Part shown: positions 1-35,617 of the stretch, in pieces
Layout of the letters: each line of letters starts with the position of its first letter
Numbering within the stretch: position 1 is the stretch's first letter
DNA from: Bacteroidales bacterium
Lineage (GTDB): Bacteria > Bacteroidota > Bacteroidia > Bacteroidales > VadinHA17
Length of the DNA stretch: 64,000 bases
Direction of reading: 5' to 3'
Assembly: GCA_016928075.1 (NCBI GenBank)
Contig: JAFGLJ010000029.1
Span: forward strand, 4,399-68,398
Notes under the pieces: model-generated
What the model was told of the DNA's origin: nothing
Seen by the model: only the letters and a program-made list of their open reading frames with translations
The model's database searches: none
Position numbers and translations under genes: made by a program

Positions 1-90
1 CCTGCATGAAAAATTATTATCTCCTTTTCTTTGTCACTTTTGCATGACACCAGGAAGATCATGGATGATATAAACAAGGGCAGAAATATG

Positions 91-489
91 CTATTTAGCT
101 TTCTCATCAGGTCTTTTATTTATACTCCAGAAAAATTTCCTGGTTATTTCCTTCATAGATTTATTGAACTGGTCAGTAAGCTCATTATAGGCATTAATAA
201 GTTCAATTCCTTCCTGTGTAAGCTCAGTATGCCCTCCTTCGGATCCCCCACGATGCTTTTCAACAAGATTAAACCCCAGTTTCTCCTCCACTTCCCTGAT
301 CATCCCCCAGGCTTTTCTATAACTCATATTCATCCCCGCAGCTGCAGAGGACAATAACCCGGTCTCCCTGATTTCATTAAGCAGGCCAAATCCTTCCCAG
401 TCCAGAATTTTCTCATTATCGATTGTTTCGAGATTGATCTGGTATTTCAGGAAAACATTGTAATATTTTGAACCCTTTGGACCTGCCAT
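91..489 (-). CDS. modE: ModE-family winged-helix regulator (short, HTH-only form)
   Basis: LLNEIRETGLLSSAAAGMNMSYRKAW...LVEKHRGGSEGGHTELT is the ModE N-terminal HTH signature; 132 aa, no MOP domains. Confidence 0.85.
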   Translation of the reverse strand: MAGPKGSKYYNVFLKYQINLETIDNEKILDWEGFGLLNEIRETGLLSSAAAGMNMSYRKAWGMIREVEEKLGFNLVEKHRGGSEGGHTELTQEGIELINAYNELTDQFNKSMKEITRKFFWSINKRPDEKAK

Positions 490-526
490 AATTATTGGGT
501 TGAAAGAGTTGAGAAAGTTGAGTTTA

Positions 527-808
527 TTATTTATAAATACATCTGTAAGCTGTTTGTTCCTTGACTTTTAGCTTAAAGGTTGCGTCTTTTTCAACAATGA
601 AAGTCTCCCCTTCTTCGTAGTCTTTCCATCCGGATTCACCCGGTACCAGAACTGTTAGCACACCGGAGATAACAGTCATATATTCAACGGTTGAAGTGCT
701 GAACTCGTATTCACCGGGGGCCATAACACCAATAGTGGCCTGCCCGTCTTTATTTTTAAATGCAATGGATTTTACATTGCCGTCAAAATATTCATTTACT
801 TTAAACAT
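527..808 (-). CDS. ppnP: Pyrimidine/purine nucleoside phosphorylase (YaiE/PpnP cupin)
   Basis: MFKVNEYFDGNVKSIAF...ATIGVMAPGEYEFST...EYMTVISG; start moved to ATG at 808. Confidence 0.9.
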   Translation of the reverse strand: MFKVNEYFDGNVKSIAFKNKDGQATIGVMAPGEYEFSTSTVEYMTVISGVLTVLVPGESGWKDYEEGETFIVEKDATFKLKVKEQTAYRCIYK

Positions 809-876
809 AATGATAACAATTATATTAATTAACAATCAGAGCGGATTGTCTGCAAATTTAAAGTTTTATTGCATTT

Positions 877-3193
877 CTAAAACAAATACGTGAGCTCCAT
901 TCTTATAAATATGCCATAATTTATAAATCCATCATCAACGAGTGCAACTTTGTCGAAGATATTTTCAACATCAAATTTAATGTTAATGTGGCCTAGAGTT
1001 TTCCAGAACCTGACATCAACCGTAGAAAAAGGATCAATCAGCAGGGTATTCATATCATCGGCATAATGTTCGCCTTTATAATTCATTACAGCACTTAAAT
1101 TCACTATTTTATTTCTCCAGCTCATTCCTGCCGATAACTTGTGTTTGGGCACATAAGTCAAATACTTGCCTGTAATATCTTCACTCTGGCTGCTTATTTC
1201 CGGATCAAATTCAGTTATTATAGATTCGTTATAACTGTAATTTGCAAATAATCCTATTCCCCTGTTAAAATCATAGCTCAATTTCATTTCAGCACCCTTT
1301 ATTTCAACCTCGCCTATATTTTCAACCTGTCTTACAGGTCTCATGCGGCTTCCCATTTGAAGGCTGTCGCCTGTACTCACGTAATACATAAAATCTTTAC
1401 CTTTTGAAAAATAGACTGATGGGGACACTGATAACCCTTTAAAATGAAAGTCGGCGCCAAGCTCATACGAATCAAGGTTTTCAGGTTCCAGCATTGGATT
1501 AGCTTTTTTAAATCCACCCCTTACAAAACCTGAACGACATAGGTCGTCAAGTACGGAAGGGCGGAATCCATGGGAATACACTGCATAAACACGCAGGTTT
1601 TCCATGAATCCATACTGGGCTGACAATCTAGGACTTATGGCATTCCAGCTATGTTCATCCTGGTCCCTGTCCTCGAGGTCGACAAGAATGCTTGTTGCTG
1701 AAGTAGGATCTTTGATGTAATAAGCACCATCGAAATATTTTGCATTATCAAACCTCAGTCCAACGAGCAATATAAGTTTATCATTAAATGCTTTAATTTC
1801 ATCCTGTATAAATAAGGCATAATTATTCATTTTACCTCTGTTATATACCTTATCCGAAACCAGCTGGTATACATCAACGGCATCAACGCTTCCCTGCCTG
1901 ATATCGAATCCAGCTGTAAGGGTAGACGCTTTGCCCAGCGGCATTGATGCATTAACAAGCAACCCCATATCCCTGCGATCGGATTCAACTTTATAATACT
2001 TGCTATCACTGTCACTGTCATTCACTTTTAGATATCCTTCCTGCCTGAAATACAAACTGGAGTTTATTGAAACATTGCCCATCGATCCTTTATAGTTCAT
2101 CCTTGCCGAATAAGTATCGTGGTCAGCACTGCTTCCCACGGGATCAAAATAAATAAACCCTGTACCGCGCCTGTCATTGTAATAATTCAGCAATAACTCC
2201 ACCCTGTTATCTTCATTTATCTGGTAACCTGTTTTCAAATCGGCTCCATATTCCTGCATATCATTATTAATGGTTGTTGAAGCCGTGTCGGGTTCAGGAA
2301 TATAGTTTTCGTCCTCGTCCATAATAGCCAAATTTATATAGCCATCGCTCTATCTGTAATAACCGTTAACAGAATAGTAAAAACCTTTACCGGACTCAGC
2401 AGCATAATTACTGGCAATGTTAACTCTTCCACCCAAAGTATTTAGAGAACCATATTCGCCTTGCATAACCCTGGAATTCTTTTGCCGGCATTTTTGTTAC
2501 CACATTTATCACTCCCCCGAGTGCATTACCCCCATACAGTGATGAACCAAGTCCTTTCGTTATCTCTATCTTCTGCAGCTGGTCGGGTTGTATCAGGCTC
2601 CAGTTAACCGAGCCGCCATCAGACTTATTTATGGGAATTCCATCTATCAGTACAAGTACCCTTGCCTGGTTAATCCCGCTCATACCACGCATGACTATAT
2701 TGTTCTTATGAGATATAAAGCCACCAGGGTTATAAACATCAACACCAGAAACGCGGTTAAGGTAGCCCATTATATCTACAGAGGGTGCCTCGGCAAATAC
2801 CCTGGGCCCAACCAGCTCAAGACGGATGGGCACTTCTTCAAGTTTTCGTTCTGTCTTTGTCCCGGTAACAACTATCTCATCAGCCTGTATTATGGCCGGC
2901 GGCATTTCAATGGTGATCCTCAGATTCCTGGATGAGCTGAAATTAATTTGTCGTGTAATCGTCTCGTATCCTACAAATGACACCGTTAGTTGGTAAGGCC
3001 CGTCTTCAAGTCCATTAAACTCAAAGCGGCCATTGGAGTTGGTACTTGTCCCGGAACTTCCAGGATCCAGTATTACCGTGGCCCCGGGAAGTGTCATTCC
3101 GTTTGATCCATCAACAACCAGTCCATTGAGGTCCTGTGATTTAAGCATACAGGACATTAAGAACAAAACTGACAGGATAAGAATTTTTTTCAT
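877..3193 (-). pseudogene. TonB-dependent receptor (CarboxypepD_reg-like + plug + barrel), disrupted
   Basis: 2420..3193 encodes signal peptide, CarboxypepD-like domain and plug (IEITKG..SSLYGGNALGGVINVVT); 877..2331 encodes a barrel ending in F. They are joined by a frameshift at ~2458 and an in-frame TAG at 2350-2352 (...YYR*SDGY...). Confidence 0.85.
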
Positions 3194-3206
3194 AGTATTT
3201 GATTTT

Positions 3207-3230
3207 GGATATGTAATTTTCTACATAACG
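3207..3230. promoter_or_regulatory. Putative ModE box upstream of the TonB receptor
   Basis: GGATATGTA-N6-TACATAACG, close to the ModE consensus CGnTATATA-N6-TATATAnCG. Confidence 0.7.
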
Positions 3231-3281
3231 AATATAAAGATATAATTTTTAACAGAAATTGATTTTTATCAGAACAGCTTT

Positions 3282-4382
3282 TCACTCAATTAAGATAATA
3301 TAAGCGAGCTTTGCTCCTTTTAGATGCCTGTCGGCGAAAAAGTCGATGCCAGGATGCACCATGAAACGGCCGTCTTCATCATCAGGTTCATCAAGAAGGA
3401 TTACCTCGGCCATATCTGTCCGGTTCAGTATTTCAGACAATGAAAAGACAACTCTGTATGCGTCTTTTGCACCTATTGCTATCATTCCCCTCGCCAGGTC
3501 ATCATTTGTAAAACTGAACCTCTGCCTGAGCACTTCAGCGAGTGGCACACCTGTATAGTTATCTATGCTTCTGAGCCCTTTGTGCATGCCGAAAAACACT
3601 AAATCATGGCTCACCCTGAGGTCATTGACAGTCATGGAATTGTCAATAACAGTTGTCTTATTACCGGGTCCTCTGATCTCTATCTCAGGCGAAAACAGAG
3701 GTCTCAACCCTCTGCTACCGGGAAAACTTTGCGGGAAGGATCTTATGATAATTTTAGAAGGCTGGTCAATGTTTCTTACAGTAATATAATCATTTGAAGC
3801 TACCAAACGGGTCTTTTCGGGCAGAGTCCATTTTTCATCACTTGCCACAGGGAAAATTGGTTGAACATGAGTAGCAAGTATGATATCATGATTGTGAGTG
3901 GTAAAGAATAATTCTCCCCAGCTGAACACTGCCCTGTTTCCCCTGTCATTTTCAACAATCACGAAAATATCGGAGGTAAGACCAAATTCGCCTTTATTAT
4001 ATTTCGAAACCACGTAATCCTTTACTATATCAGAGAGTGAATAGCCGATATACTGAAATGCACCTCTGAATTCAGGTTTGCCATTCCTTTTCGCAGGGAA
4101 GTATTCCTTCACCACTACTGTGCGCTTAAGCAGTTTATCGACGTAAGCCTGACCATGGTTAAGGATTTCACCGCTTACATATGGCATATTCCCTTTCAGT
4201 TTTACAGCCCTATCATTATCATAGGGATCATTATTGTATTGAGCCCTAATCACAGGATTATCAAGATAATTCTGAAGGTATTCGGGCTTAAGTGTTTCTC
4301 CAGAAATAACATCAGGATCCTGGGCAGGCAGGCAGGTAAAGGAAAATAGCAAAATGAACAAGGGGAAGCATATTTTTCTCAT
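3282..4382 (-). CDS. Exported protein with two molybdopterin-oxidoreductase-like (Oxidored_molyb/PruR-like) domains
   Basis: Signal peptide; internal duplication YIGYSLSDIV..NRAVFSWGEL / YTGVPLAEVL..DAYRVVFSLSEI..ADRHLKG; no Cys in the mature chain. Confidence 0.6.
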   Translation of the reverse strand: MRKICFPLFILLFSFTCLPAQDPDVISGETLKPEYLQNYLDNPVIRAQYNNDPYDNDRAVKLKGNMPYVSGEILNHGQAYVDKLLKRTVVVKEYFPAKRNGKPEFRGAFQYIGYSLSDIVKDYVVSKYNKGEFGLTSDIFVIVENDRGNRAVFSWGELFFTTHNHDIILATHVQPIFPVASDEKWTLPEKTRLVASNDYITVRNIDQPSKIIIRSFPQSFPGSRGLRPLFSPEIEIRGPGNKTTVIDNSMTVNDLRVSHDLVFFGMHKGLRSIDNYTGVPLAEVLRQRFSFTNDDLARGMIAIGAKDAYRVVFSLSEILNRTDMAEVILLDEPDDEDGRFMVHPGIDFFADRHLKGAKLAYIILIE

Positions 4383-4409
4383 GTTTATAATGTGAATTGT
4401 AACAGGAAG

Positions 4410-4433
4410 CGAATATACTTTTTTTGCATATCG
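4410..4433. promoter_or_regulatory. Possible (weaker) ModE box
   Basis: CGAATATAC-N6-TGCATATCG, 27 bp upstream of the 4382 start; left half-site degenerate. Confidence 0.45.
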
Positions 4434-4567
4434 GTTGCAAACCGCAAGGAATTATTTCAAAAAATGAAGAAAGATCTTAATACCATGAACAGTGAAGAGA
4501 CTGGTAAATTATTCCCGGCATACATTAAGGATCCTTATCCGGCAAGGCCACATTTATTCAAGAAGGA

Positions 4568-6721
4568 TTATTGATAATCTCTGACCACTTCAATTAATTC
4601 CGGAAGGTCCATGCCGATCTTTTTAAGGAATTCTATCTTAGGCACCCCTTTCCTGTTCCATCCTCTTCTCTTGTAAACGGCATCGAGGAGGTTTTCGTAT
4701 TGTTTTTCCCTGTACTTACGAGTTATGGCTATTTTCTCTTCAACTGATTTGCTCTCAGGGTCAACACCTATCAATTCTTTCATCTGCTTATCGTACCTTT
4801 CAGCCCTTGATTCGTATTCTTCCACTGTGACAGGTCCGGCTGCGCGATACGGCTGCCTGTCATGTTCTCGTGTTCCATACCCTCTCCTGAGGTTGAATAT
4901 CCGCTGGAAGTTATACACTCTTTCAGAATCTTCTATTAGCCTGCGCTTATCAAATTCCCTGCCCGTAACTGCCTTATATATTGTTACATAATTATCAACA
5001 TGCTCGGGTACTTTTGCCGGTTCATCTGTTTCAGCATTATCTGCAGGTTCAACATCATTCCAGGGCAGTTTGCATAGTCCTACAAGCCCAAACCAAGTTC
5101 GGAACATCGGGAAATAATGCAATGCTTCAGCTTTATCCTCGAATGTTGGGATCTGGTTATTGACCATATCCATAAAGATAAGCCATGCTTCATCGTGCTG
5201 GGGTCCCTTGTTGGTCATGGCGAACCCACCCTGCTGAGCGAGGGATTCCTTGGAAATATACTGTGAATATTCCAGTCCTTTATTCTCCATACCTATATCA
5301 TTAAGAAAACCAGGATCACCCCATCCTTTCTCAATGAACAACTCTTTCATTTTCCTTATACCCATACCGGCTATCTTACCAAATCCTTCCCCACGGGCCA
5401 TCCTATGCATGAGTTCCATTGCTGCATCAGCATTGCCAAAATTCAATTTTAGCCCGCCGGTTTTTTCTTCATCAAGTATTCCATTCTCAAAACACTCCAT
5501 TATAAATGCAAGGAGTGTACCCCAGGTAATGGTACATATACCATATGTATCACAATAGAAATTAGATTCGAGGATATAATCAGTGCTGAAAATACCGCAG
5601 TTTGACCCTAGTCCTCCTGCACTTTCATATTCCGGTCCGTCGACAATGACCTTTTGTCCTTTATAGGGACCTGTTCTAACTTTATAGTTATCAACACCTT
5701 TCGAGCACGACATGTTGCAGCCTATCCAGCATCCATCGGGTATTCCCTGGGTAAAGAGTTTTTTCCATTCTTCTGAATGAATTTTAAAAGCGTCAGGGTG
5801 GCTGCCGAACTTGTAATTATTCGTGGGCAGCAGATCATGATCGTTCATAATTTCTATCAGGTGTGCAGTGCCCACTTCTTTCATTCTGGATTGCTCGTGG
5901 TCGAGCTCACGCATTTCACGGTTAAAGCGTTGCCCTCTTTCCATAATAGCCTGTAAATCAATAACATTATTCAGATTTCCCTTAACGCCGGGCACCTTAC
6001 AAACAAGGGCTTTGATTTTTTTATTCCTGAACACCGTACCTGTTCCTCCCCTTCCTGCCTGTTTCATCCTGACAACTTTCCTTTTGGGATCATAGAAACT
6101 GAAATTGAGCATCCCTATGAGTGAATTATCCGCACCTCTTCCCGTGGACACAACAGCCACATTCTTTTTATCCCTTTCATCATCTGCATACATCTCAGTC
6201 AGCTGCTCAGCAAGCACATGGCTATCGAGGGCTTCTGCAGGTGCTTCGTATATCTCTATACTGTGGTTTATACCGTCAATATATATAATAACATCCTTTT
6301 CAGCCTTACCCTGTATTTCGAGTGCATCATAACCTGCAAATTTGAGAAATGGGCCAAAAAAACCCCCGACGTTACTGTCCATAACTGAATCGGTCTGAGG
6401 GGATATTGTTACCACAAGTGACTTACCGGTGCCTGAATACTGTGTTATTCCACCTACTGGTCCGGATGAAATTATTATTTCATTTTTTGGATCATTCCAG
6501 GGAGTGCGGGGCTCGGTAGCATCCCATAAAAGCCTCAAACCATATCCCTTTCCACCTATGAACTTCTCTTTCATTTGTTCATGGACATCCTTTTCCTTTA
6601 TCTCATTCGTTCCGACATTCACATAAAGGATCTTATCAGTATAACCTTTATTGAGTGGAGTCCATTCATATGAAAATTCTTTAAGTAACTTATGTTTTTC
6701 TTTAATTGCCTGTATATCCAT
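4568..6721 (-). CDS. aor: Aldehyde:ferredoxin oxidoreductase family (tungstopterin enzyme)
   Basis: FIGGKGYG, SNVGGFFG, AGRGGTGTVF, CxxxCxxxC, DGPEYE, CDTYGICTI, YKRRGW motifs. Confidence 0.92.
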   Translation of the reverse strand: MDIQAIKEKHKLLKEFSYEWTPLNKGYTDKILYVNVGTNEIKEKDVHEQMKEKFIGGKGYGLRLLWDATEPRTPWNDPKNEIIISSGPVGGITQYSGTGKSLVVTISPQTDSVMDSNVGGFFGPFLKFAGYDALEIQGKAEKDVIIYIDGINHSIEIYEAPAEALDSHVLAEQLTEMYADDERDKKNVAVVSTGRGADNSLIGMLNFSFYDPKRKVVRMKQAGRGGTGTVFRNKKIKALVCKVPGVKGNLNNVIDLQAIMERGQRFNREMRELDHEQSRMKEVGTAHLIEIMNDHDLLPTNNYKFGSHPDAFKIHSEEWKKLFTQGIPDGCWIGCNMSCSKGVDNYKVRTGPYKGQKVIVDGPEYESAGGLGSNCGIFSTDYILESNFYCDTYGICTITWGTLLAFIMECFENGILDEEKTGGLKLNFGNADAAMELMHRMARGEGFGKIAGMGIRKMKELFIEKGWGDPGFLNDIGMENKGLEYSQYISKESLAQQGGFAMTNKGPQHDEAWLIFMDMVNNQIPTFEDKAEALHYFPMFRTWFGLVGLCKLPWNDVEPADNAETDEPAKVPEHVDNYVTIYKAVTGREFDKRRLIEDSERVYNFQRIFNLRRGYGTREHDRQPYRAAGPVTVEEYESRAERYDKQMKELIGVDPESKSVEEKIAITRKYREKQYENLLDAVYKRRGWNRKGVPKIEFLKKIGMDLPELIEVVRDYQ

Positions 6722-6810
6722 TTGTTCTTTCTTAAGTTTTATTTTCCTGTCTCTATTTTATTCGCAAGTCTAAGTTAGAGACCAAATATAGAGCATAAAA
6801 TGACATAAAT

Positions 6811-6834
6811 CAATATGTTAGAAAATACATATCG
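6811..6834. promoter_or_regulatory. Putative ModE box in the divergent aor / DUF364 spacer
   Basis: CAATATGTT-N6-TACATATCG. Confidence 0.7.
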
Positions 6835-6921
6835 AAGAAAAGGTAAAAGACAAAAAGAGAGGTAATATATATCATTTATTTGACCAGGTAAAAGAATTAT
6901 TTTTGAAGGAAATATAATTAG

Positions 6922-7644
6922 ATGGATGAACCAATAAAGTATTTTTATTCTATTAAGGGTTTTGACAGGGCTGATATCAGTGAATGTGTTCTAGGCGAAA
7001 AATATGTTGCTATAATGAACAATAGTGGGAATATTGGGGTATGCGCCACACTTGGCAATAAAATGAATGATAAGCTTCTGGCTGGAGAGCAACCCGATAT
7101 TGGCAATCAAATACACAGGATAATCCTTAACGCGTACTATAATTCCATTTGCAACTATGAAAGGAATTATGAGGATATAAAAGATATTTTTGACTGCATT
7201 GATTTCAGCAAATATCGAAGGATAGTTATGATTGGTTATTTTGAAAGTTTATATGACAAGTTTTCCTTAAACAATATCCACCTGGAAGTGTTTGATATTC
7301 ATAAAGAAAGTCATATACTGTCGGATCTTTCAAATATGAAAGAATCATTGAAGGAGGCCGAAACCATAATACTATCAGGTACAACTATTTTTAATAATAC
7401 TTTTAACGATATAGTTGATCAAACGCCTGATAAATGCAATATTTTCCTGCTCGGCCCATCAAATATTTTATCTGAAGAAATGTTCAGATATCGTAATATT
7501 AAGGTTGTTTTCGGTTCGGTATTCAATCCCGGAGACCGCCGTGTGCTCAACAGCATTGCCAGTGGCCATGGAACGAGGGGATTTCTTCCATATCTTAATA
7601 AAGTGTATATTATAAAGGATAATTACAGGAATGAAATTCAGTGA
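6922..7644 (+). CDS. DUF364 family Rossmann-like protein
   Basis: IVMIGYF...IILSGTTIFNNT...FLLGPS pattern typical of DUF364. Confidence 0.75.
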   Translation: MDEPIKYFYSIKGFDRADISECVLGEKYVAIMNNSGNIGVCATLGNKMNDKLLAGEQPDIGNQIHRIILNAYYNSICNYERNYEDIKDIFDCIDFSKYRRIVMIGYFESLYDKFSLNNIHLEVFDIHKESHILSDLSNMKESLKEAETIILSGTTIFNNTFNDIVDQTPDKCNIFLLGPSNILSEEMFRYRNIKVVFGSVFNPGDRRVLNSIASGHGTRGFLPYLNKVYIIKDNYRNEIQ

Positions 7645-8236
7645 AATAAAAAGTCATCTGGGAGGATACAGTGTTGGGATTGCCGGCGCAGGCGGACTCG
7701 GGTCGAACTGCGCCATAGCCCTTGCCCGCAGTGGCATAGGTCATTTAGTAATCGCTGATCATGATATTGTTGATAGCGGTAATCTGAACAGGCAGTATTA
7801 CTTTATTGACCAGGTAGGCATGAAAAAAACTGAAGCATTGAAGATGAATATAGAAAGGGTAAACCCGGAGACAAAGATTGATATTTATGATACAGAGCTA
7901 ACCAGGGAAAACATCCCTGTAATTTTCAGAGATTGCGATATAATAGTTGAGGCATTTGACAAAAGTGAAATGAAGCAGATGCTTGCAGAGACAGTATTGA
8001 GCCTTTGGCCTGAGCGGCCGCTTATCATGGGATCCGGGCTTGCCGGTTATGGAAAAACGAATAAACTGAAAGAAAGTTTCATGGGAAGAACTCTAATAGC
8101 CTGCGGTGACCAGGAATCAGAAATTTCGGATGAATTACCTCCTATGGCTCCGCGAGTAGGAATAGTTGCGAACATGCAGGCCAATGCTGTTGTTGAGATA
8201 TTAATGAAAAGGAAAAGTCATGAAAATAACACTTAA
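7631..8236 (+). CDS. thiF: ThiF/MoeB-family sulfur-carrier adenylyltransferase
   Basis: GIAGAGGLGSN, DHDIVDSGNLNRQ, APRVGIVANMQAN. Confidence 0.88.
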   Translation: MKFSEIKSHLGGYSVGIAGAGGLGSNCAIALARSGIGHLVIADHDIVDSGNLNRQYYFIDQVGMKKTEALKMNIERVNPETKIDIYDTELTRENIPVIFRDCDIIVEAFDKSEMKQMLAETVLSLWPERPLIMGSGLAGYGKTNKLKESFMGRTLIACGDQESEISDELPPMAPRVGIVANMQANAVVEILMKRKSHENNT

Positions 8237-8423
8237 TAACAGGCCAGAAGAGTTTGTCCAGGGTGAGATCACTGTAAGTGAAATGCTTAGAATAAAGAGG
8301 TTTACATACCGTATGCGCCTGGTTAAGATAAATGGCAAACTCATTAAAAAGGATGAATATGATAAAGCAATTATCCGTGAGGGTGACAATGTGCAGATGC
8401 TCTACCTGATGAGTGGCGGTTAA
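8220..8423 (+). CDS. thiS: ThiS/MoaD-type sulfur carrier
   Basis: 67 aa ubiquitin-like size, C-terminal GG. Confidence 0.85.
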   Translation: MKITLNNRPEEFVQGEITVSEMLRIKRFTYRMRLVKINGKLIKKDEYDKAIIREGDNVQMLYLMSGG

Positions 8424-8467
8424 TATATATAATTGATTATATTACAAATTTGTTTTAGGTTTGTAAT

Positions 8468-8812
8468 ATGAATGATTTCATTAAAACTTTCATAAATAAG
8501 ATACCTCCCATACTCAGGAACAGGTATTTCCTTACCCTTGTGGTATTCCTGATATGGATATTGCTTTTTGACAATAATAATCTTATTGACAGGTATCATT
8601 ATATGAAAAATCTTCGTCAGCTGGATAAAGACAAACGCTATTACCAGGAAAGAATAGAAGAAGACAGCAGGAAATTAAACGAACTCAAGACCAGCGATGA
8701 CAATCTTGAGAAATTTGCTCGCGAACAGTATTTCATGAAGAAAGAGAACGAAGACATATATATCATAGTGGGCGAAGATGATGAGAATTATTCAGAAAAT
8801 GATAAGAAGTAA
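8468..8812 (+). CDS. ftsB: FtsB/DivIC septum formation initiator family
   Basis: TM helix, coiled coil, LEKFAREQYFMKKENE. Confidence 0.85.
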   Translation: MNDFIKTFINKIPPILRNRYFLTLVVFLIWILLFDNNNLIDRYHYMKNLRQLDKDKRYYQERIEEDSRKLNELKTSDDNLEKFAREQYFMKKENEDIYIIVGEDDENYSENDKK

Positions 8813-8813
8813 T

Positions 8814-10070
8814 TTATCGTTCCATATCCCTGTATATCTTCAATAACCCTCCTGCGTTAACGGATGCATCAGGCTTACCCGTTTTCTTCAGGAAATCAGC
8901 CGCTGCTTTCTCCACCGGGATTTTCTCCAGGTAATATCGTGAGTGCAGGAAGTTCATGTACTTCACTATTCTGAACATATTAAACCAGTTGAAAAATCGT
9001 TTACGGAAAGAATCTTTTGATCCGGTGTTATTCTTTATCTCCGATAATTTCTGAGGCCATTCATTTTCGGCCAGAAATTCCTGCAGGCTTTCATGCAGGC
9101 CTTCAATGATTTGTCCGGATTTATTCATGTCGGCATCATATAATAACATTGTTTTATCAAAAAACTCCTTCAAGTATTCAAAACCTTTGGTATCATAAGT
9201 ATTGTAAGCCATTTTATCTTCTTCAGTCATTTTAGCTATTACGGGTCCGGTACCAAAGGGGACCCTGTCTGAAATTCTTGGTGAGGGTATTACGGTTGCA
9301 GTATTAAGGTAAAAATATCCCCCGGCAGGTATAAGCTTCTGAATGAAGTAAAAATCTTCTGCTCCCTTTCTTTTACTCATCCCCCCTGCTTTGGCATAAG
9401 TTTCTGCCTTAACTGCCATGGCTGAGCCAATGGTCTGGAAAACCCATGGATAGCCGGTATATTTCAATGACTGGTAATAATATCGCAGGTGCAGCTCATA
9501 CAGGGTAATTGCATCGTAAGTAGCCTGTGGAAGCTCACCGGTGAGTGGATGTTCAAAATATATTGAGCATGCCTTACGGTCGCTTCGTTTATAAAGTTTA
9601 TAGTACAGCTCTTCCAGGTAATTTTCCGAAACCCTGCAATCAGCATCAAGGGATACTATCACACCTTCGGGATTGTTTATATTGTTAAATCGTCCAAGAG
9701 CTTCATCCATCGCCATCTTTCTGGCCATACCTACTCCCCACCCGGGATTATTCTGAATTCCCGCATCATAAAAAAGCATATTAACAAATGCATCCTTATT
9801 GTCCTTCCTCCATGAAACCAGCTCACTTACAGTAGTATTGTTTTCTTTTACCTGTGATATGGTGACACGGGCCGGAGCATTAACAAGAATTATTACTTCA
9901 ACCTGGCAAGGCGGATTTTTACACTTGAGCAATGAATTGAGGGTAAAAATAATCCCGGGTTCATTAAAAGCCGGGATTATGATTATTATTCCGGTATCTT
10001 TTGCCGGTATATCTGGAAACAATGTATCAACAAGTGTTTTGTTTGCCAGATAGGTGGATGCAAAACCCAT
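8814..10070 (-). CDS. Glycosyltransferase family 2 protein
   Basis: IIIPAFNE, SLDADC (DxD), AEDFYF. Confidence 0.8.
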   Translation of the reverse strand: MGFASTYLANKTLVDTLFPDIPAKDTGIIIIIPAFNEPGIIFTLNSLLKCKNPPCQVEVIILVNAPARVTISQVKENNTTVSELVSWRKDNKDAFVNMLFYDAGIQNNPGWGVGMARKMAMDEALGRFNNINNPEGVIVSLDADCRVSENYLEELYYKLYKRSDRKACSIYFEHPLTGELPQATYDAITLYELHLRYYYQSLKYTGYPWVFQTIGSAMAVKAETYAKAGGMSKRKGAEDFYFIQKLIPAGGYFYLNTATVIPSPRISDRVPFGTGPVIAKMTEEDKMAYNTYDTKGFEYLKEFFDKTMLLYDADMNKSGQIIEGLHESLQEFLAENEWPQKLSEIKNNTGSKDSFRKRFFNWFNMFRIVKYMNFLHSRYYLEKIPVEKAAADFLKKTGKPDASVNAGGLLKIYRDMER

Positions 10071-10754: not shown

Positions 10755-11750
10755 TTAGAATTCGGGGCATGGAACAGCATGAAACATTCTTCTCCTGGTG
10801 CCTAATGATGAAGTAATAAACTCATATACCAGTGAAATTTCATGTGAGCCACCAGTGGATGCTATGAGATTGGAGATAGTGAAATCATAAGAATAGCCAA
10901 TATGCAGTTTTTCGGTTTTCACACCTATAAGTGCAATAAGTGCATCGCCTGCCTGGCTGGTAACGAAAGGAATTCCCCTGTACCACAAGCCGAAAATTAA
11001 AGGATCCCTGTAGTAATAAAGTCCGAGGTCTGACTGCCAGAACCGATCCTGGTATTTAATATTACCTGCAATTGATATTACTTCCGAGTACCTGTTCAGC
11101 AGTCTTCCCCTCCTTGATATCTGGACTCCGCCAAAAACATTTACCTTTACCGGAACGTGAGTATCCCAGTCGCCATAGAATGACTGACGCGGCTGAAAAA
11201 GGTGATCAAGGTTAAATCCTCCCCATATTCGGTCATTATAAGCCATTGCTGAGAAAGCAAAATCTACATCTGCCACTCCTTCGAAGGGAGGTGGGTAAAC
11301 CGAGGGGGTGGTACCCCTGGCGGTAATCATGCTGTTCCATATCAGCTTGCCGTAATTAAGTCCAAGGTAGATAAACTTGAAATTAATCCCCGGCCGTATA
11401 TGCCAGTCCTGGTTAAGCTGGATATCGTATGAATAAAGAAGGCCTATATTGGTAGTGCTCAGGTCGCCCGATCCGGCAACATCATAGGTTGCCAGAACGC
11501 CTATTCCCGAGCGGAAATTAGGAAGATACCTGTCATAGCTGAAACTATATGTATTGAACACACCTGTTACAGAGGGCCACTGATTCCTGTAATTTATTGA
11601 AATCCTGTTTTCTTCAATGGCGCCCGTAAATGAAGGGGCAAGGTATAGTGCATTGGCATAGAACTGCGAAAAGTGCGGATCCTGAGCTTTTAATCCGGCA
11701 GAAACGAATACGCAAAACAAGATTATTGTATATCTAATTCGTGTTAGCAA
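10755..11750 (-). CDS. porP: T9SS membrane protein PorP/SprF family
   Basis: QDPHFSQFYANALYLAPSFTG, YRNQW, GYSYD, GSHEISL, C-terminal CPEF. Confidence 0.9.
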   Translation of the reverse strand: MLTRIRYTIILFCVFVSAGLKAQDPHFSQFYANALYLAPSFTGAIEENRISINYRNQWPSVTGVFNTYSFSYDRYLPNFRSGIGVLATYDVAGSGDLSTTNIGLLYSYDIQLNQDWHIRPGINFKFIYLGLNYGKLIWNSMITARGTTPSVYPPPFEGVADVDFAFSAMAYNDRIWGGFNLDHLFQPRQSFYGDWDTHVPVKVNVFGGVQISRRGRLLNRYSEVISIAGNIKYQDRFWQSDLGLYYYRDPLIFGLWYRGIPFVTSQAGDALIALIGVKTEKLHIGYSYDFTISNLIASTGGSHEISLVYEFITSSLGTRRRMFHAVPCPEF

Positions 11751-11917
11751 GTCAGATTCTGTTTAGACCAGTAAGTACGAAATTAACGAAATGTACTAAA
11801 ATAAGTTACATTTTTCACATATTTATTGCATAAAAACTAACAAAGCGTTTGATTTTTGAACATTCAAGGATAGAAGACTAAGGATTTGGATTGGCGATAA
11901 GCCTCATAATTAAACAA

Positions 11918-13243
11918 TTACCATTTTGGAAGCAGGGTAAGGTCCCCACCTTTTACAAATGGTTCACCGGTTTTATACATTCCGCGAACTTTCCATATAT
12001 ATACTCCCGGTTCTGCTTTCTGGCCTTTATAATACCCATCCCATCCTATTTGGATATCATCTGTTTCAAAAACAAGGATTCCTCTTCTGCTGTAAATACG
12101 CAGATTATATGATGTGACACCTGACCATACCGGATGGAATACTTCTTCATTCTGGTCACTCCTGTTCGAATAATAGCCTCCCGTAGGGCCGCCTTCATTC
12201 GGGACGAAAGCATTAGGGAATTTAATGAAGCAGGTATTATCGCCGAATGCATTTGTGATAACCATGCTATCTGTACATCCCTGCTCAGATATAGCTATAA
12301 GTGTAACAGAGTATGATCCCGGTTTTTTATAGAAATGTGATGGTTCAAACTCATCGCTGGTATTACCGTCACCAAAATTCCATTTCCATGCGACCGAATT
12401 CTGAGAGTAGTTATAAAAGCGTATCTCTTCATCAGGTATTGCGGGATTACCCTCACTTACTTCGAATCTGGCCATCGGTTTTGGATAGACATTTACTGTT
12501 TCCCTTGCAGTTACCCTTGACCCGTTCTCCCCAAAAAGTATCAGTCTCACTTCATATCTGCCAGGTTCATCATATACCCAAACAGGGTTCAGCTCGGTAC
12601 TGATACCACCATCATCAAATTCCCAGATACATGAATCATAATTATGCGACAGGTTTATGAACGAAACATTGAGTGGAGCACATCCAGTATTTACATCGGG
12701 TTTAAAATTTGCCATTGGCGCCGGTTTTGCAAGAGATTCCAGGCTAACTTTTTTATCCATGGGTAAGCGCTTCAGGTTATCATCAGTACGCATTTCAGCT
12801 ATATCATTGACAGTAATATCTTTTCCCTGTTCTTGAATCTCATCTTCAATTATCCCCTGAGGATGTTTTTGTTCATTTATGCCCTTCGAGGTTATACGCT
12901 GTTCCTCGTTTGTTCTCTTTTCAGGTGGCAGGTTATAATCTTCTTTATTTATAATGTTTCGTGAAGCCACTGGTAAAGAATCAGAATCGATAATTATTTT
13001 CTGTGATTCCCTGGATGTTTCTGCATTTTTTATGGTAAGTACTGATATTGTAACTGAAGCAACGGTAATGAGTCCTGCGAGGTAATATATATTGAAGCTT
13101 CCCGGCCTGAAATGCATAAACTCCCTGAAGCGGAGTTTCTTTACAAAACGCGGCCAGAAATTATCAGGAACATTATGCTCTCTGTTACCGAGCTTAGTCC
13201 TGTATAATTCCTCAATATTTTTATATTTCCCCGTATTATTCAA
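11918..13243 (-). CDS. Membrane-anchored PKD-domain protein with gliding-motility (type B) T9SS CTD; anti-sigma-like N-terminus
   Basis: N-terminal IEELYRTKL..E..VP..FW, TM helix, two PKD repeats (WEFDDG, WNFGDG), FPNAFVPN...IYSRRG...GWDG. Confidence 0.8.
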   Translation of the reverse strand: MNNTGKYKNIEELYRTKLGNREHNVPDNFWPRFVKKLRFREFMHFRPGSFNIYYLAGLITVASVTISVLTIKNAETSRESQKIIIDSDSLPVASRNIINKEDYNLPPEKRTNEEQRITSKGINEQKHPQGIIEDEIQEQGKDITVNDIAEMRTDDNLKRLPMDKKVSLESLAKPAPMANFKPDVNTGCAPLNVSFINLSHNYDSCIWEFDDGGISTELNPVWVYDEPGRYEVRLILFGENGSRVTARETVNVYPKPMARFEVSEGNPAIPDEEIRFYNYSQNSVAWKWNFGDGNTSDEFEPSHFYKKPGSYSVTLIAISEQGCTDSMVITNAFGDNTCFIKFPNAFVPNEGGPTGGYYSNRSDQNEEVFHPVWSGVTSYNLRIYSRRGILVFETDDIQIGWDGYYKGQKAEPGVYIWKVRGMYKTGEPFVKGGDLTLLPKW

Positions 13244-32370: not shown

Positions 32371-34863
32371 CTAAAATTGTTGTCCCATTACAAAATGGAA
32401 TTGTGACCCAGCCACATCCCTTCCGGGTACAGGGTCAAAACCGTAAGCCCAGTCAATACCCAGCAGTCCAAACATAGGCAGGTTTGCCCTCAAGCCCACT
32501 CCTGCTGACCTGTGCATTTTGAAAGGGTTAAATTCTTTAAGTTCGTACCAGGCATTTCCTGCTTCCAGAAAGGTAAGGAGATAAATTGTAGCCTGTGGGT
32601 TCAGTGTAAGCGGATACCTTAATTCGAAAGTAAGTTTTGAATACACGTTCCCCACGTATACAGTTTTATTGTCTTTCACAATGGTCGGGGTGAGGCTTCC
32701 ATTTTCATACCCCCTCAACGCTATCACGTCACGTCCATAAAAGCTATAACCTGTCATACCATCTCCTCCCAGGTAAAAATTTTCGAAAGGTGAAGGTCCG
32801 ATATCCTTATTATAAAAGCCCAGGTATCCGAATGATACTCTTGTGTTTAGGACAAACTTGTCAAACAGTTCATAATAATAATCTCCTTTGAAAAGCCATT
32901 TATGGAATTCAATCCACCTGTATTTTTCCTGGTCGGTGGCATCTGAATAATCTTTTCCTGTGAATAATGAATAAGGAGGGGTAAGCTGCAATGAAAGGCT
33001 GAACGAGGAGCCCCTGCGTGGATAAATAAGGCTTGGTCCACTTGAGAATCTCGTTATTCTTGTGGTCAAAGACAGCATGTTGGCTTCGCCGTTTCTGAAA
33101 AGAAAGTTATAATAAGAATAATTATTAAGGCTGTATCTCTGGTAGCCCAGTTCTGCATAAAGGCTGAAGAAATCATCCGGCCATTCCAGGCGTTTCCCGA
33201 TACCTGTTGTCACACCGTCGATAATCATCGACTGACGGCTTTCAGTCCCCTTTCTGTCACCATTGGTCATAACGGAACGATAGGCTGAAACGGAGAATGT
33301 ATTTGGCTTTTTACCACCCAGCCATGGTTCCACAAATGAAACATTATATGACTGGTATACGCGTCCGTTTGATTGTGCCCTGATACTCAAAGATTGTCCG
33401 TCACCACTGGGATATGGTCTCCACTCTGAAAGTTTGAAGAAATTCTTCATGGCAAAATTATTGAACCTCACCCCCACAGTTCCCACCAGCATTCCTGCTC
33501 CCCAGCCTCCTGATATTTCAAACTGGTCATTTGCTCTTTCTTCAAGCGCATATTCAAGGTCGACATTCCCTTCCGCCGGATTCATAATAGGTCGGGGGTT
33601 TATCTTTTCCGGGTCGAAATGACCGAGCACAGCCACCTGACGTGCCGACTTCATAATTGCATCTTTACTGAAAAGGTCTCCGGGCAGGGTATATAGCTCA
33701 CGCCTGACAACATGTTCATTGGTACGGTTATTGCCTTTTACGATAACCTTGTTAAGGGTTGCCTGTTCACCTTCCTGTATCCTTATTTCCAAATCGATAG
33801 AATCATTCTGGATATCGGTCTCAACGGGTACCAGGTTTGAGAAAAGGTAGCCGGTATTCAGGTAAAGTGAGGATACAGCATCTTCATCATAGTTCAGTCT
33901 TTCGTTAAGCAGTGTCTGGTTATATACATCACCCTCGTTAATATTGAGGACTGCTGAAAGCAATTCCTTAGGGTATATACTATTCCCCACCCAGTCGATA
34001 TCACCGAAATAGTACTGACCGCCTTCTTCCACCATGAGAGCCATCACCACCCTGTCTTCAGACATATCCATAATAGTATCATTGAGTATCCTGAAATCGC
34101 GGTACCCGTTTTCATTATAGAAAGTGACAAGGCTTTCCTTATCCTCTTCAAACAGATCTTCCACGTATTTTGAAGCCTTGAAAATATTAAGATTCTTCTT
34201 TTTCGTATTTTTCATAACCCTTCTGAGTCTCTTGTCAGAGAATGCCTCATTACCCTCGATGACTATATCGCTAATCTTGACCCTGTCATTTTTATCAATA
34301 TGCACATTAAGTTTGATGCTATTGGGGTTTACCGGGTCGTCTTTCTGGATTATTCTCACTTCGGTGTTCAGAAATCCTTTTTCAACAAAATGATCCCTTA
34401 TAATTGTTATGGCGTTTGATAATATATGGTCGGTAACCTGACTTCCGCTTATCAGGTTAACCTTTTCAATGATATCTTGTATTTCGTTCTGTTTAACCCC
34501 AAAGTATTCGACAGAAGATATACGTGATCTTTCTCCCAGGTATATATTAAGAAATATTGTATCGGATCTGATATCGGTTGCGGTGATTTTAACTTCAGAG
34601 AACAGGCCCTGGCTCCATAATTTCTGGACGGCCTGTGTAATTACTTCACCCGGCACCAGTATCCTTGAATATTTTCTTATTCCTGACAATCCTACTATTG
34701 CGTTTATGTCAAGATATTTAACACCCGACACAGTTATGTCTCCTACCACATATTCAGCAGGATCCATATAGTCCATTATCCTGGCATCTTCCTGTGCCCT
34801 TATTTTTAATGGTGAGAAAAATAATATTATTGCTGTCAGAAGTATTGAAAATTTTACAAACAT
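32371..34863 (-). CDS. bamA: Outer-membrane assembly factor BamA
   Basis: POTRA repeats, LRGYEN, C-terminal F; start at MFVKF. Confidence 0.95.
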   Translation of the reverse strand: MFVKFSILLTAIILFFSPLKIRAQEDARIMDYMDPAEYVVGDITVSGVKYLDINAIVGLSGIRKYSRILVPGEVITQAVQKLWSQGLFSEVKITATDIRSDTIFLNIYLGERSRISSVEYFGVKQNEIQDIIEKVNLISGSQVTDHILSNAITIIRDHFVEKGFLNTEVRIIQKDDPVNPNSIKLNVHIDKNDRVKISDIVIEGNEAFSDKRLRRVMKNTKKKNLNIFKASKYVEDLFEEDKESLVTFYNENGYRDFRILNDTIMDMSEDRVVMALMVEEGGQYYFGDIDWVGNSIYPKELLSAVLNINEGDVYNQTLLNERLNYDEDAVSSLYLNTGYLFSNLVPVETDIQNDSIDLEIRIQEGEQATLNKVIVKGNNRTNEHVVRRELYTLPGDLFSKDAIMKSARQVAVLGHFDPEKINPRPIMNPAEGNVDLEYALEERANDQFEISGGWGAGMLVGTVGVRFNNFAMKNFFKLSEWRPYPSGDGQSLSIRAQSNGRVYQSYNVSFVEPWLGGKKPNTFSVSAYRSVMTNGDRKGTESRQSMIIDGVTTGIGKRLEWPDDFFSLYAELGYQRYSLNNYSYYNFLFRNGEANMLSLTTRITRFSSGPSLIYPRRGSSFSLSLQLTPPYSLFTGKDYSDATDQEKYRWIEFHKWLFKGDYYYELFDKFVLNTRVSFGYLGFYNKDIGPSPFENFYLGGDGMTGYSFYGRDVIALRGYENGSLTPTIVKDNKTVYVGNVYSKLTFELRYPLTLNPQATIYLLTFLEAGNAWYELKEFNPFKMHRSAGVGLRANLPMFGLLGIDWAYGFDPVPGRDVAGSQFHFVMGQQF

Positions 34864-34864
34864 G

Positions 34865-35617
34865 TCAATTCTCTTTTTCATGCACCTGTTCACTTGTTTT
34901 TCCAAATCTTCTCTCTCTTTTCTGATACTCAATTAATGCCTTATATAATTCTTCTTTACCAAAATCAGGCCAAAGTGTTTCAGTAAAGTATAATTCGCTG
35001 TATGCAATCTGCCATAGCAGGAAATTGCTTATGCGCAGTTCACCACTGGTTCTGATAAGCAATTCGGGGTCAGGTATATCCCTGGTAGTAAGGTAATTCT
35101 CAAATATCTTATCATCAATATTACCCGGATCTATTTTACCTTCTTTTATTTTATAGGATATATCCCGTACAGCTTTCACCATTTCCCACCGCGAGCTGTA
35201 ACTAAGTGCAACAATCAGGGTCATTCCACTGCACTTTGAAGTTCGTTCGAGGGTGTAATCCAGGCTTTCTCTGACTTCAGCTGAGAGTCTGTCAATATCA
35301 CCTATAACTTTAAGTATGATATTATTATCGACAAGTTTTTTTGTTTCATTATTTAATGAATTGACCATCAATTCCATGAGCGCCTCCACTTCTTCCCATG
35401 GCCGGTTCCAGTTTTCAGTTGAGAAAGCATACAGGGTAAGGTATCTTATGCCCAGTTCAGCTGCTCTTTCAATAATCTCCCTGACTGCGTCAACTCCTTT
35501 TTTATGGCCGTAGTTACGATCCTTGCCTCTCTGCATAGCCCATCGGCCATTACCATCCATTATAATGGCAACATGTTTTGGCAAGCGCTTTAAGTTTATA
35601 CTCTCTTTCAGGGACAT
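34865..35617 (-). CDS. uppS: Undecaprenyl diphosphate synthase
   Basis: [35 protein letters not shown]. Confidence 0.96.

Follow-up and report, generated by a model that had tools for sequence, protein, structure and literature searches.

In the usual description of molybdenum and tungsten uptake, the metal diffuses through porins and is then imported by an ATP-binding cassette transporter. Here we describe a gene island that combines a tungstate-type importer with an exported protein of 366 residues, referred to below as X, in a 64,000-nucleotide stretch of DNA (the window; G000:C44:4399-68398) from a Bacteroidales metagenome-assembled genome (MAG) of 76 contigs and 2.76 Mb that is 75.7% complete. 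Bare coordinates are those of the window, contig numbers beginning with C belong to this genome (G000), and numbers beginning with L denote loci. Genes were called by Pfam and NCBIfam profile matches. We have high confidence that the island forms a unit for tungsten uptake, cofactor synthesis and enzyme production under a ModE-like regulator. We consider it probable that X serves tungstate uptake as a previously undescribed periplasmic accessory in this ModE-controlled island, which is carried by an uncultured Bacteroidales-like sediment bacterium.

The closest described systems are the WtpABC and TupABC importers under ModE-type control. The island resembles them in that moeA and moaA belong to the transporter operon and in that its WtpA exceeded the cut-off of TIGR03730 (313.3 bits; cut-off 242.75), with a score of 351 just under the 355 required for NF003196. 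It differs from them in that the operon includes an exported tandem protein of sulfite oxidase (SUOX) type and, in relatives, also a gene for a TonB receptor or porin. The terms 'outer membrane', 'TonB' and 'porin' do not occur in the available text of an account of molybdenum and tungsten (Mo/W) uptake (PMC6147048), and in the openly searchable literature, which excludes subscription journals and supplements, we found no TonB-dependent or SUOX-like protein described as taking part in the uptake of tungstate or molybdate. Molybdate delivery by ModA and IcmP in Pseudomonas is cited in the introduction of PMC11734730. As in that case and in non-iron TonB uptake, an outer-membrane protein would here be dedicated to a trace oxyanion metal; unlike it, the loci encode no secreted ModA, and the receptor, whose substrate is putative, is dead in this genome.

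For X itself the comparison is with PruR, a periplasmic SUOX-fold protein of Proteobacteria without cysteines, in which, according to the available text of PMC11194511, small pterins are bound flanked by a Tyr and a Trp and hydrogen-bonded to an Asn. Like PruR, X is exported, has a SUOX-like fold of about 150 residues per domain and lacks the Mo-ligating Cys, and its domains align with PruR at Z 10-12. Unlike PruR, X is a tandem protein with no detectable sequence relation to it, and its neighbours are aor, the receptor and wtp genes, whereas PruR lies beside a DcpA-type cyclic di-GMP enzyme. What remains new is X, a cofactor-free tandem SUOX-fold periplasmic protein that is encoded with both tungstate importer families, often together with an outer-membrane gate, in four phyla.

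Fold and gene neighbourhoods of X

X had no match in Pfam or NCBIfam, nor any match to PF00174 at E <= 1, and the profile of its family retrieved 0 PDB sequences at E <= 10, so that we base its kinship with SUOX and PruR on the fold and on weak Pfam and Atlas signals. These signals were weak PF00174 matches in 8 of 34 aligned family members (best E 0.0038) and a PF00174 domain in 21 of 30 Atlas neighbours. The family comprised 53 clusters in a word-seeded search and 421 representatives at E <= 0.001 among 1.84 billion sequences; those with names are all labelled "hypothetical", and no member carries a Pfam domain.

The fold was assessed from an AlphaFold model (predicted local distance difference test score, pLDDT, 86.8; predicted template modelling score 0.82), for which every Foldseek match at E <= 0.0024 was a sulfite oxidase or dehydrogenase, a nitrate reductase, YedY or PruR. 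In VIA-align comparisons the C-domain (residues 223-366) aligned with chicken sulfite oxidase at Z 12.7 (137 residues, root-mean-square deviation 2.8) and with PruR (7kom) at Z 11.7 (116 of 134 residues). The N-domain (residues 58-222) was folded alone (pLDDT 92.4) and compared with 48,161 representative chains in a search that does not depend on Foldseek. Its top ten matches were all SUOX-family proteins or PruR (Z 8.5-11.7), including a SUOX-fold protein at Z 11.7 (129 aligned, root-mean-square deviation 2.7) and PruR at Z 10.2, and the eleventh match fell to Z 5.0. The two halves of X also aligned with each other (hhalign probability 81%, E 1.2e-5, 96 columns). X carries a Sec-type signal and no twin-arginine motif, and no alignment column of the 34 members holds an invariant or near-invariant Cys. 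By its models, then, X is made of two tandem SUOX-fold domains of PruR size without the Mo-ligating Cys; the duplicated molybdopterin-oxidoreductase-like domains read into the exported protein by an initial annotation of this DNA are borne out by fold, not by sequence.

Within the C-domain, Asp307 is invariant and Tyr309 and Phe348/Phe349 are nearly invariant among the 34 members. One might guess, by position only, that Asp307-x-Tyr309 and Phe348/349 are equivalent to the Asn-x-Tyr and Trp of PruR. X could be a PruR-like periplasmic pterin sensor, reporting the redox state or the presence of excreted pterins and tuning tungstate uptake, a role that the closeness of both domains to PruR, the Sec signal and the lack of a conserved Cys would all suit. 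We nevertheless regard this role as unlikely. In the annotated loci no DcpA-type partner or other signalling protein lies beside X, PruR has a single domain where X has two, the search of PDB sequences gave no relation between them, and the steady pairing of X with an outer-membrane channel and a binding-protein gene suits transport better.

Relatives of X were collected by a scan of one genome per species, which found 138, and the best 80 loci were examined with tblastn searches using the island proteins (two rounds) and, on selected loci, with Pfam and NCBIfam. Mo/W genes (Wtp or Tup transporters, moaA, moeA or aor) lay within 10 kb of X in 48 of the 80 loci, made up of 16 full islands, L015, which is cut at X, and 31 others. 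A further 8 loci had a TonB receptor and no Mo/W genes, and 24 had no such neighbour. The initial annotation had made its proposal depend on homologues of X and the receptor being linked to Mo/W genes elsewhere, and they are. Directly beside X we found a TonB receptor in 18 loci and an Alginate_exp-type porin in 4, and this adjacency to a receptor or porin spans four phyla.

The arrangement varies between lineages. The island type has the order X-receptor, 11 Bacteroidota loci have the order wtpA-X-wtpB-wtpC, and 7 Bacteroidota loci, of which the majority also have wtp genes close by, carry a receptor 0-58 nucleotides (nt) ahead of X. The receptor-X order recurs in 6 Aminicenantes-type loci and in 1 Acidobacteria locus, the latter of which also has wtpA, moeA and moaA. 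TupABC follows directly 3' of X in 8 of the 80 loci. The Elusimicrobia form reads LysR - X - (Alginate_exp-type porin, 4 loci) - TupA-TupB-TupC-MoeA-MoaA, and the Acidobacteria form reads (HTH_17+PBP_like regulator) - X - TupABC and/or an AOR gene; the HTH_17+PBP_like regulator lies directly 5' of X in 4 Acidobacteria loci, 3 of which have the AOR gene. These regulators may be 'TunR/TaoR-like', a label for which a literature search on TunR gave nothing usable. Two further WtpA-type proteins exceeded their cut-offs. Since X is linked to transporters of the Wtp and Tup kinds, tungstate, which the initial annotation had offered as the alternative substrate, is the one that the neighbourhoods favour. 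On a tree of X, Mo/W-linked rows were scattered over the whole tree and most unlinked rows fell into two derived clades (12 and 8 rows). The context label changed 11 times, compared to 40.8 in shuffles (0 of 200 as low), a weak contrast given that related rows share labels.

It is very unlikely, in our view, that X has a periplasmic role that is not related to tungsten and came into the island by operon drift. The 24 loci without Mo/W neighbours and the second copy of X in this genome, which has no Mo/W neighbour, are what one would expect of drift, but X is repeatedly linked to tungstate transporters of two unrelated families (Wtp and Tup) and, across Bacteroidota, Acidobacteriota and Elusimicrobiota, to regulators of three types (ModE-like, LysR and HTH_17+PBP_like). 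In Aminicenantes, too, X is paired with a TonB receptor, the X gene has a conserved operator-like element with a ModE-box half-site, and the tree labels point the same way, weakly.

Several points weigh against a role of X in tungstate uptake and against the tungsten island as a whole. The unlinked loci indicate that the fold family is not tied to tungsten as such. In the clade of 12 (L020:8600-15957 and 11 other loci), X is flanked on one side by a Gate-family (nucleoside recognition) gene and on the other by a GntP permease, a glycerate kinase (DUF4147/MOFRL), a zinc alcohol dehydrogenase and a GFO/IDH/MocA oxidoreductase. The clade of 8 groups the kin of a 642-residue Bacteroidales fusion of X domains with a C-terminal Asparaginase_2 (L041:9944-11869, and L042, L044, L045 and L048), which adjoins MutS2 and M28 peptidases. 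The second copy of X (C44:136531-137505, right of the window; 293 bits to the family profile) is flanked by peptidase M1, DUF4290, an EPSP-synthase-family gene, GrpE and DnaJ. The loci examined were the best 80 of the 138, the names on MAG records may reflect mis-binning, and the tree is a quick maximum-likelihood one that we treat as unrooted. For WtpB and WtpC the tungstate models were the best match yet scored under their cut-offs (276.8 vs 340 and 324.7 vs 440), and for the TupA-type proteins TupA was the only NCBIfam match, at about 200 bits against a cut-off of 400. The ModE-like protein stayed under the cut-off of its best NCBIfam match, TIGR00637 (73.9 vs 98.5 bits), and is without a metal-sensing domain. 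The solved look-alikes nearest to X and of like size bind pterins, not oxyanions, and the whole mechanism that we propose is drawn from fold and neighbourhood. Apart from these points, two of the unlinked loci stop at a contig edge just past X, and one of them, L068, has the Elusimicrobia order LysR-X-porin.

The TonB receptor and the source of the cofactor

The receptor gene next to X is recognisable by its Plug (PF07715, 74.2 bits) and barrel (PF00593, 173.5 bits) domains and is 75% identical to an intact orthologue of 772 residues in L010. It is broken in two places. The barrel part (877-2331) and the CarboxypepD_reg and Plug part (2420-3193) lie in different frames, with a frameshift near 2459-2466, at about residue 244 of the orthologue, and an in-frame TAG stands at 2350-2352 where orthologues read Gln (NGYYRQSDGY; a CAG-to-TAG change). 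A separately assembled public contig (run X1, depth 64) had 0 differences to the window over 1800-3300. This contig probably comes from the source sample and so is not independent as a sample; an assembly error was rejected as the cause of the lesions because the contig carries the identical sequence. A 157-nt contig of X2, a further run within the same study as X1, spans the TAG and not the frameshift. Selenocysteine or other recoding was considered, as NCBIfam lists receptors with a U motif, and was rejected given the change of frame together with a TAG at which orthologues read Gln. The TonB receptor gene in this genome is a pseudogene.

Among 17 related islands, three have an intact receptor (L010, L014 and L058; 772-784 residues), one has a receptor truncated where the contig ends (L008), one has only a remnant of 99 nt (L002) and 12 have none, while X is retained in 17 of 17. 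Decay and loss of the receptor within one lineage in which X stays indicate that the roles of receptor and X are separable.

The genes for pterin synthesis are present as well. MoeA and MoaA are encoded in the island itself, MoaC and a MoaB/MogA-type protein on C33, and MoaE and a 77-residue MoaD-type carrier on C69; no inner-membrane pterin carrier was found in the island. As judged from this gene content, the organism synthesises pterin itself and possesses the classical route for the metal. With moaA, moaC, moaB, moaD, moaE, moeA and WtpABC all present, scavenging of a preformed cofactor is not supported. It is therefore most improbable that, as the initial annotation had proposed, the receptor imports a preformed Mo/W-pterin (or a metallophore complex) that X binds and DUF364 processes in place of the classical route: although X consists of two domains of a fold that binds the molybdenum cofactor (Moco), resembles a protein crystallised with neopterin, has residues that recall its pterin site by position only and is next to a receptor in 18 of 80 loci, none of moaA, moaC and moeA, whose absence was to be looked for, is missing, the linked inner-membrane transporters are Wtp and Tup oxyanion importers, the receptor is broken here and gone from most related islands that keep X, the Elusimicrobia partner is a porin, unable to drive uptake of a scarce large cofactor, and the shortened cleft of PruR likely excludes Moco (available text of PMC11194511), the X domains being of PruR size. 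A 6-pyruvoyl-tetrahydropterin synthase family gene (G000:C69:6610-7059; L084) was observed about 3 kb from moaD and moaE; its product might function in queuosine synthesis or in the synthesis of a non-Moco pterin.

Regulator, boxes and enzyme genes of the island

The island has the order thiS-thiF-DUF364 <> aor-X-(receptor)-ppnP-modE-wtpA-wtpB-wtpC-moeA-moaA, a gene order shared by 17 related loci. All the genes that the initial annotation had listed as a cluster (modE, the receptor, X, aor, DUF364, thiF and thiS) are there; its list left out ppnP and the breaks in the receptor gene and ended at the window edge, past which the island continues with wtpA, wtpB, wtpC, moeA and moaA (G000:C44:1-4505). 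The last gene, moaA, is truncated by the contig end. The reading frames of DUF364, thiF and thiS overlap, as in an operon. Coordinates are given in Table 1.

Table 1. Features of the tungsten island within the window
Feature	Position	Strand	Remarks
wtpA, 5' end	1..107	-	Start overlaps the end of modE; remainder left of the window
ModE-like regulator, 132 residues	91..489	-	PF00126 and TIGR00637 matches
ppnP-like cupin (pyrimidine/purine nucleoside phosphorylase family)	527..835	-	PF06865, 117.5 bits
TonB-dependent receptor pseudogene (CarboxypepD_reg, Plug and barrel)	877..3193	-	In two pieces
ModE-type box before the receptor gene, TATGT-N8-ACATA	3210..3227
X, exported protein of 366 residues	3282..4382	-	Sec-type signal; two tandem SUOX/PruR-like domains
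Conserved promoter/operator element before X	4410..4433	-	Left half-site CGATATGCA common to the other boxes
AOR-family enzyme, 717 residues	4568..6721	-	AFOR_N 162.1 bits, AFOR_C 323.8 bits
ModE-type box in the divergent aor/DUF364 promoter region	6814..6831		93 nt from the aor start codon
DUF364 protein, first gene of DUF364-thiF-thiS	6922..7644	+	PF04016, 75.8 bits
ThiF/MoeB-type adenylyltransferase	7631..8236	+	NF006395, 255.1 bits (cut-off 159)
ThiS/MoaD-type sulfur carrier, 67 residues	8220..8423	+	TIGR01683, 39.2 bits (cut-off 37.45)

The ModE-like protein matched PF00126 (31.2 bits; cut-off 26.6), and neither Pfam nor NCBIfam gave a match to a Mop/TOBE domain in its 132 residues, leaving a helix-turn-helix (HTH) domain only. 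In this it is like the HTH-only ModE proteins on record in Desulfovibrio, whose metal sensing is described as unexplained in the available text of PMC545781. The boxes resemble the Methanosarcina acetivorans ModE motif RTTATGT-N8-RCATAAY, which was needed for binding in electrophoretic mobility shift assays (PMC12327845, available text), and the Escherichia coli ModE consensus quoted in PMC545781; for the boxes here the likeness is one of sequence alone.

The exact palindrome TATGT-N8-ACATA occurs 3 times in the window, compared to 0.12 expected, a count reached in 0 of 100 shuffles. The third match (34735-34752) sits within an open reading frame (ORF) of 853 residues (32371-34932) and was set aside as chance for that reason. 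The looser TATGY-N8-RCATA has 17 matches in the genome, of which only the sites at 3210 and 6814 lie outside long ORFs. In the 80 related loci (1.33 Mb) the box had 22 matches, 20 of them in promoter regions of Mo/W genes: 16 at 100-119 nt before aor, 2 before the receptor gene, 1 before wtpA and 1 between wtpA and X, the remaining 2 being inside genes. In L010 the aor box deviates at one position, and a box similar to 3210-3227 precedes the receptor in L008 and L058. The consensus is approximately CGwTATGyA-N6-wrCATAwyG. A palindromic operator type TAT(A/G)T-spacer-A(C/T)ATA thus stands at putative sites before Mo/W genes. With box matches above expectation and an aor box conserved in relatives, the initial annotation's view of this DNA as a Mo/W locus with ModE-type boxes has held, and two of the three palindromes that it had named are exact. 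The third, the element before X, is kept in 14 of the 17 upstream regions aligned; it has just the left half-site in common with the other two boxes, and its right part, unlike theirs, is not palindromic. Its spacing would also fit the -33/-7 promoter consensus of Bacteroidetes. In relatives without the receptor, no further box (<= 1 mismatch) was found between X and ppnP, which probably makes X the first gene of an X-ppnP-modE-wtpABC-moeA-moaA operon in these relatives. A search of positions 1-9000 of the window (E <= 0.1) and of L082 and L001 (gathering scores) against Rfam gave neither a Moco riboswitch nor any other family.

The AOR gene is the only AFOR_C gene found in the genome. That its cofactor contains tungsten rather than molybdenum we infer solely from the adjoining Wtp-type transporter. 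The island ThiS ends in Gly-Gly, and the adjacency of aor and ThiS/ThiF is kept in 16 related islands and in L061, L072 and L080. ThiG was not found in the genome as assembled, so the island ThiF and ThiS are unlikely to serve thiamine synthesis. MoaD and MoeB genes adjacent to AOR genes and set apart from the main Moco operon have been described and proposed to provide the tungsten cofactor with its pterin (Iyer et al. 2006, PMC1779556), and a 2026 classification of tungsten oxidoreductases places single-subunit enzymes 'adjacent to worX and thiF' (PMC13328260). As far as the available text of these two sources goes, the island shares a Gly-Gly ThiS-family carrier and a ThiF-type enzyme beside a single-subunit AOR-family gene with both and, with the former, a separate MoaD/MoaE pair elsewhere in the genome; unlike the described neighbourhoods, it has DUF364 in a predicted operon with the pair and the pair divergent from aor across a ModE-type box. 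DUF364 (PF04016) has been reported beside molybdate or tungstate transport genes as a domain whose function is not known (PMC2954201; bioRxiv 10.1101/2024.03.05.583561). Here too its context is Mo/W, and it is tied to aor and thiF-thiS, whereas the available text of these sources places it inside the transporter operon. Both links, that of aor with thiF and thiS (or MoeB and MoaD) and that of DUF364 with Mo/W genes, are therefore already in print.

Other observations concern the enzyme genes and the surroundings of the island. Beyond the island the genome has two additional ThiF-family genes, and a ThiF-family match at G000:C3:81832-82524 with one in-frame TAA may be a broken gene or two adjacent genes. 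The genome has three PF00384 enzymes; a PF00384 gene at G000:C64:2412-3755 contains one in-frame TGA and may encode a selenocysteine enzyme such as formate dehydrogenase. In 15 of the 17 related islands ppnP lies between the receptor or X and modE, a place in which a nucleoside phosphorylase has no obvious role. Further along the window (10755-13243), a type IX secretion PorP/SprF gene adjoins the gene of a PKD-repeat protein that matches a CHU_C-type sorting domain weakly, just under the Pfam cut-off, and the two are flanked by an OmpH-like gene and a family 2 glycosyltransferase.

A proposed path of tungsten into the cell

On the reading that X is an accessory of tungstate uptake, tungstate would enter the periplasm via general pores and, in ancestors and some relatives, via a dedicated TonB receptor. 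X would be exported by the Sec route free of cofactor and may act in the periplasm between the outer-membrane channel and WtpA, where it would most likely capture or condition a tungsten species (oxyanion, thio-form or chelate) for hand-over. A complex prediction for WtpA and X scored 0.00 against a mark of 0.32, which counts neither for nor against binding. WtpABC would then bring in tungstate, MoeA would insert it into pterin made de novo, and ThiF and ThiS, as a MoeB/MoaD-like pair, would serve together with DUF364 in AOR-specific cofactor maturation. Through the boxes before aor/DUF364, X and the receptor gene, the HTH-only ModE-like protein would couple uptake, cofactor synthesis and enzyme production to metal supply.

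A more specific form of this proposal is that X descends from a molybdoenzyme fold, has lost Moco and has been re-used as a periplasmic tungsten chaperone. In sulfidic sediments thio-tungstate or chelated forms prevail. X might take tungstate, thio-tungstate or chelates from the outer-membrane gate (TonB receptor or porin) and pass tungstate to WtpA or TupA, as part of a hitherto undescribed tungsten uptake pathway through three compartments. We put this forward tentatively, as a possibility that could well prove wrong.

If X acts as proposed, a periplasmic protein and an outer-membrane gate that are encoded with both types of tungstate importer in several anaerobic phyla would represent an unrecognised first stage of tungsten acquisition. 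X would also provide a second biological setting for cofactor-free SUOX-fold proteins, beside the signalling of PruR.

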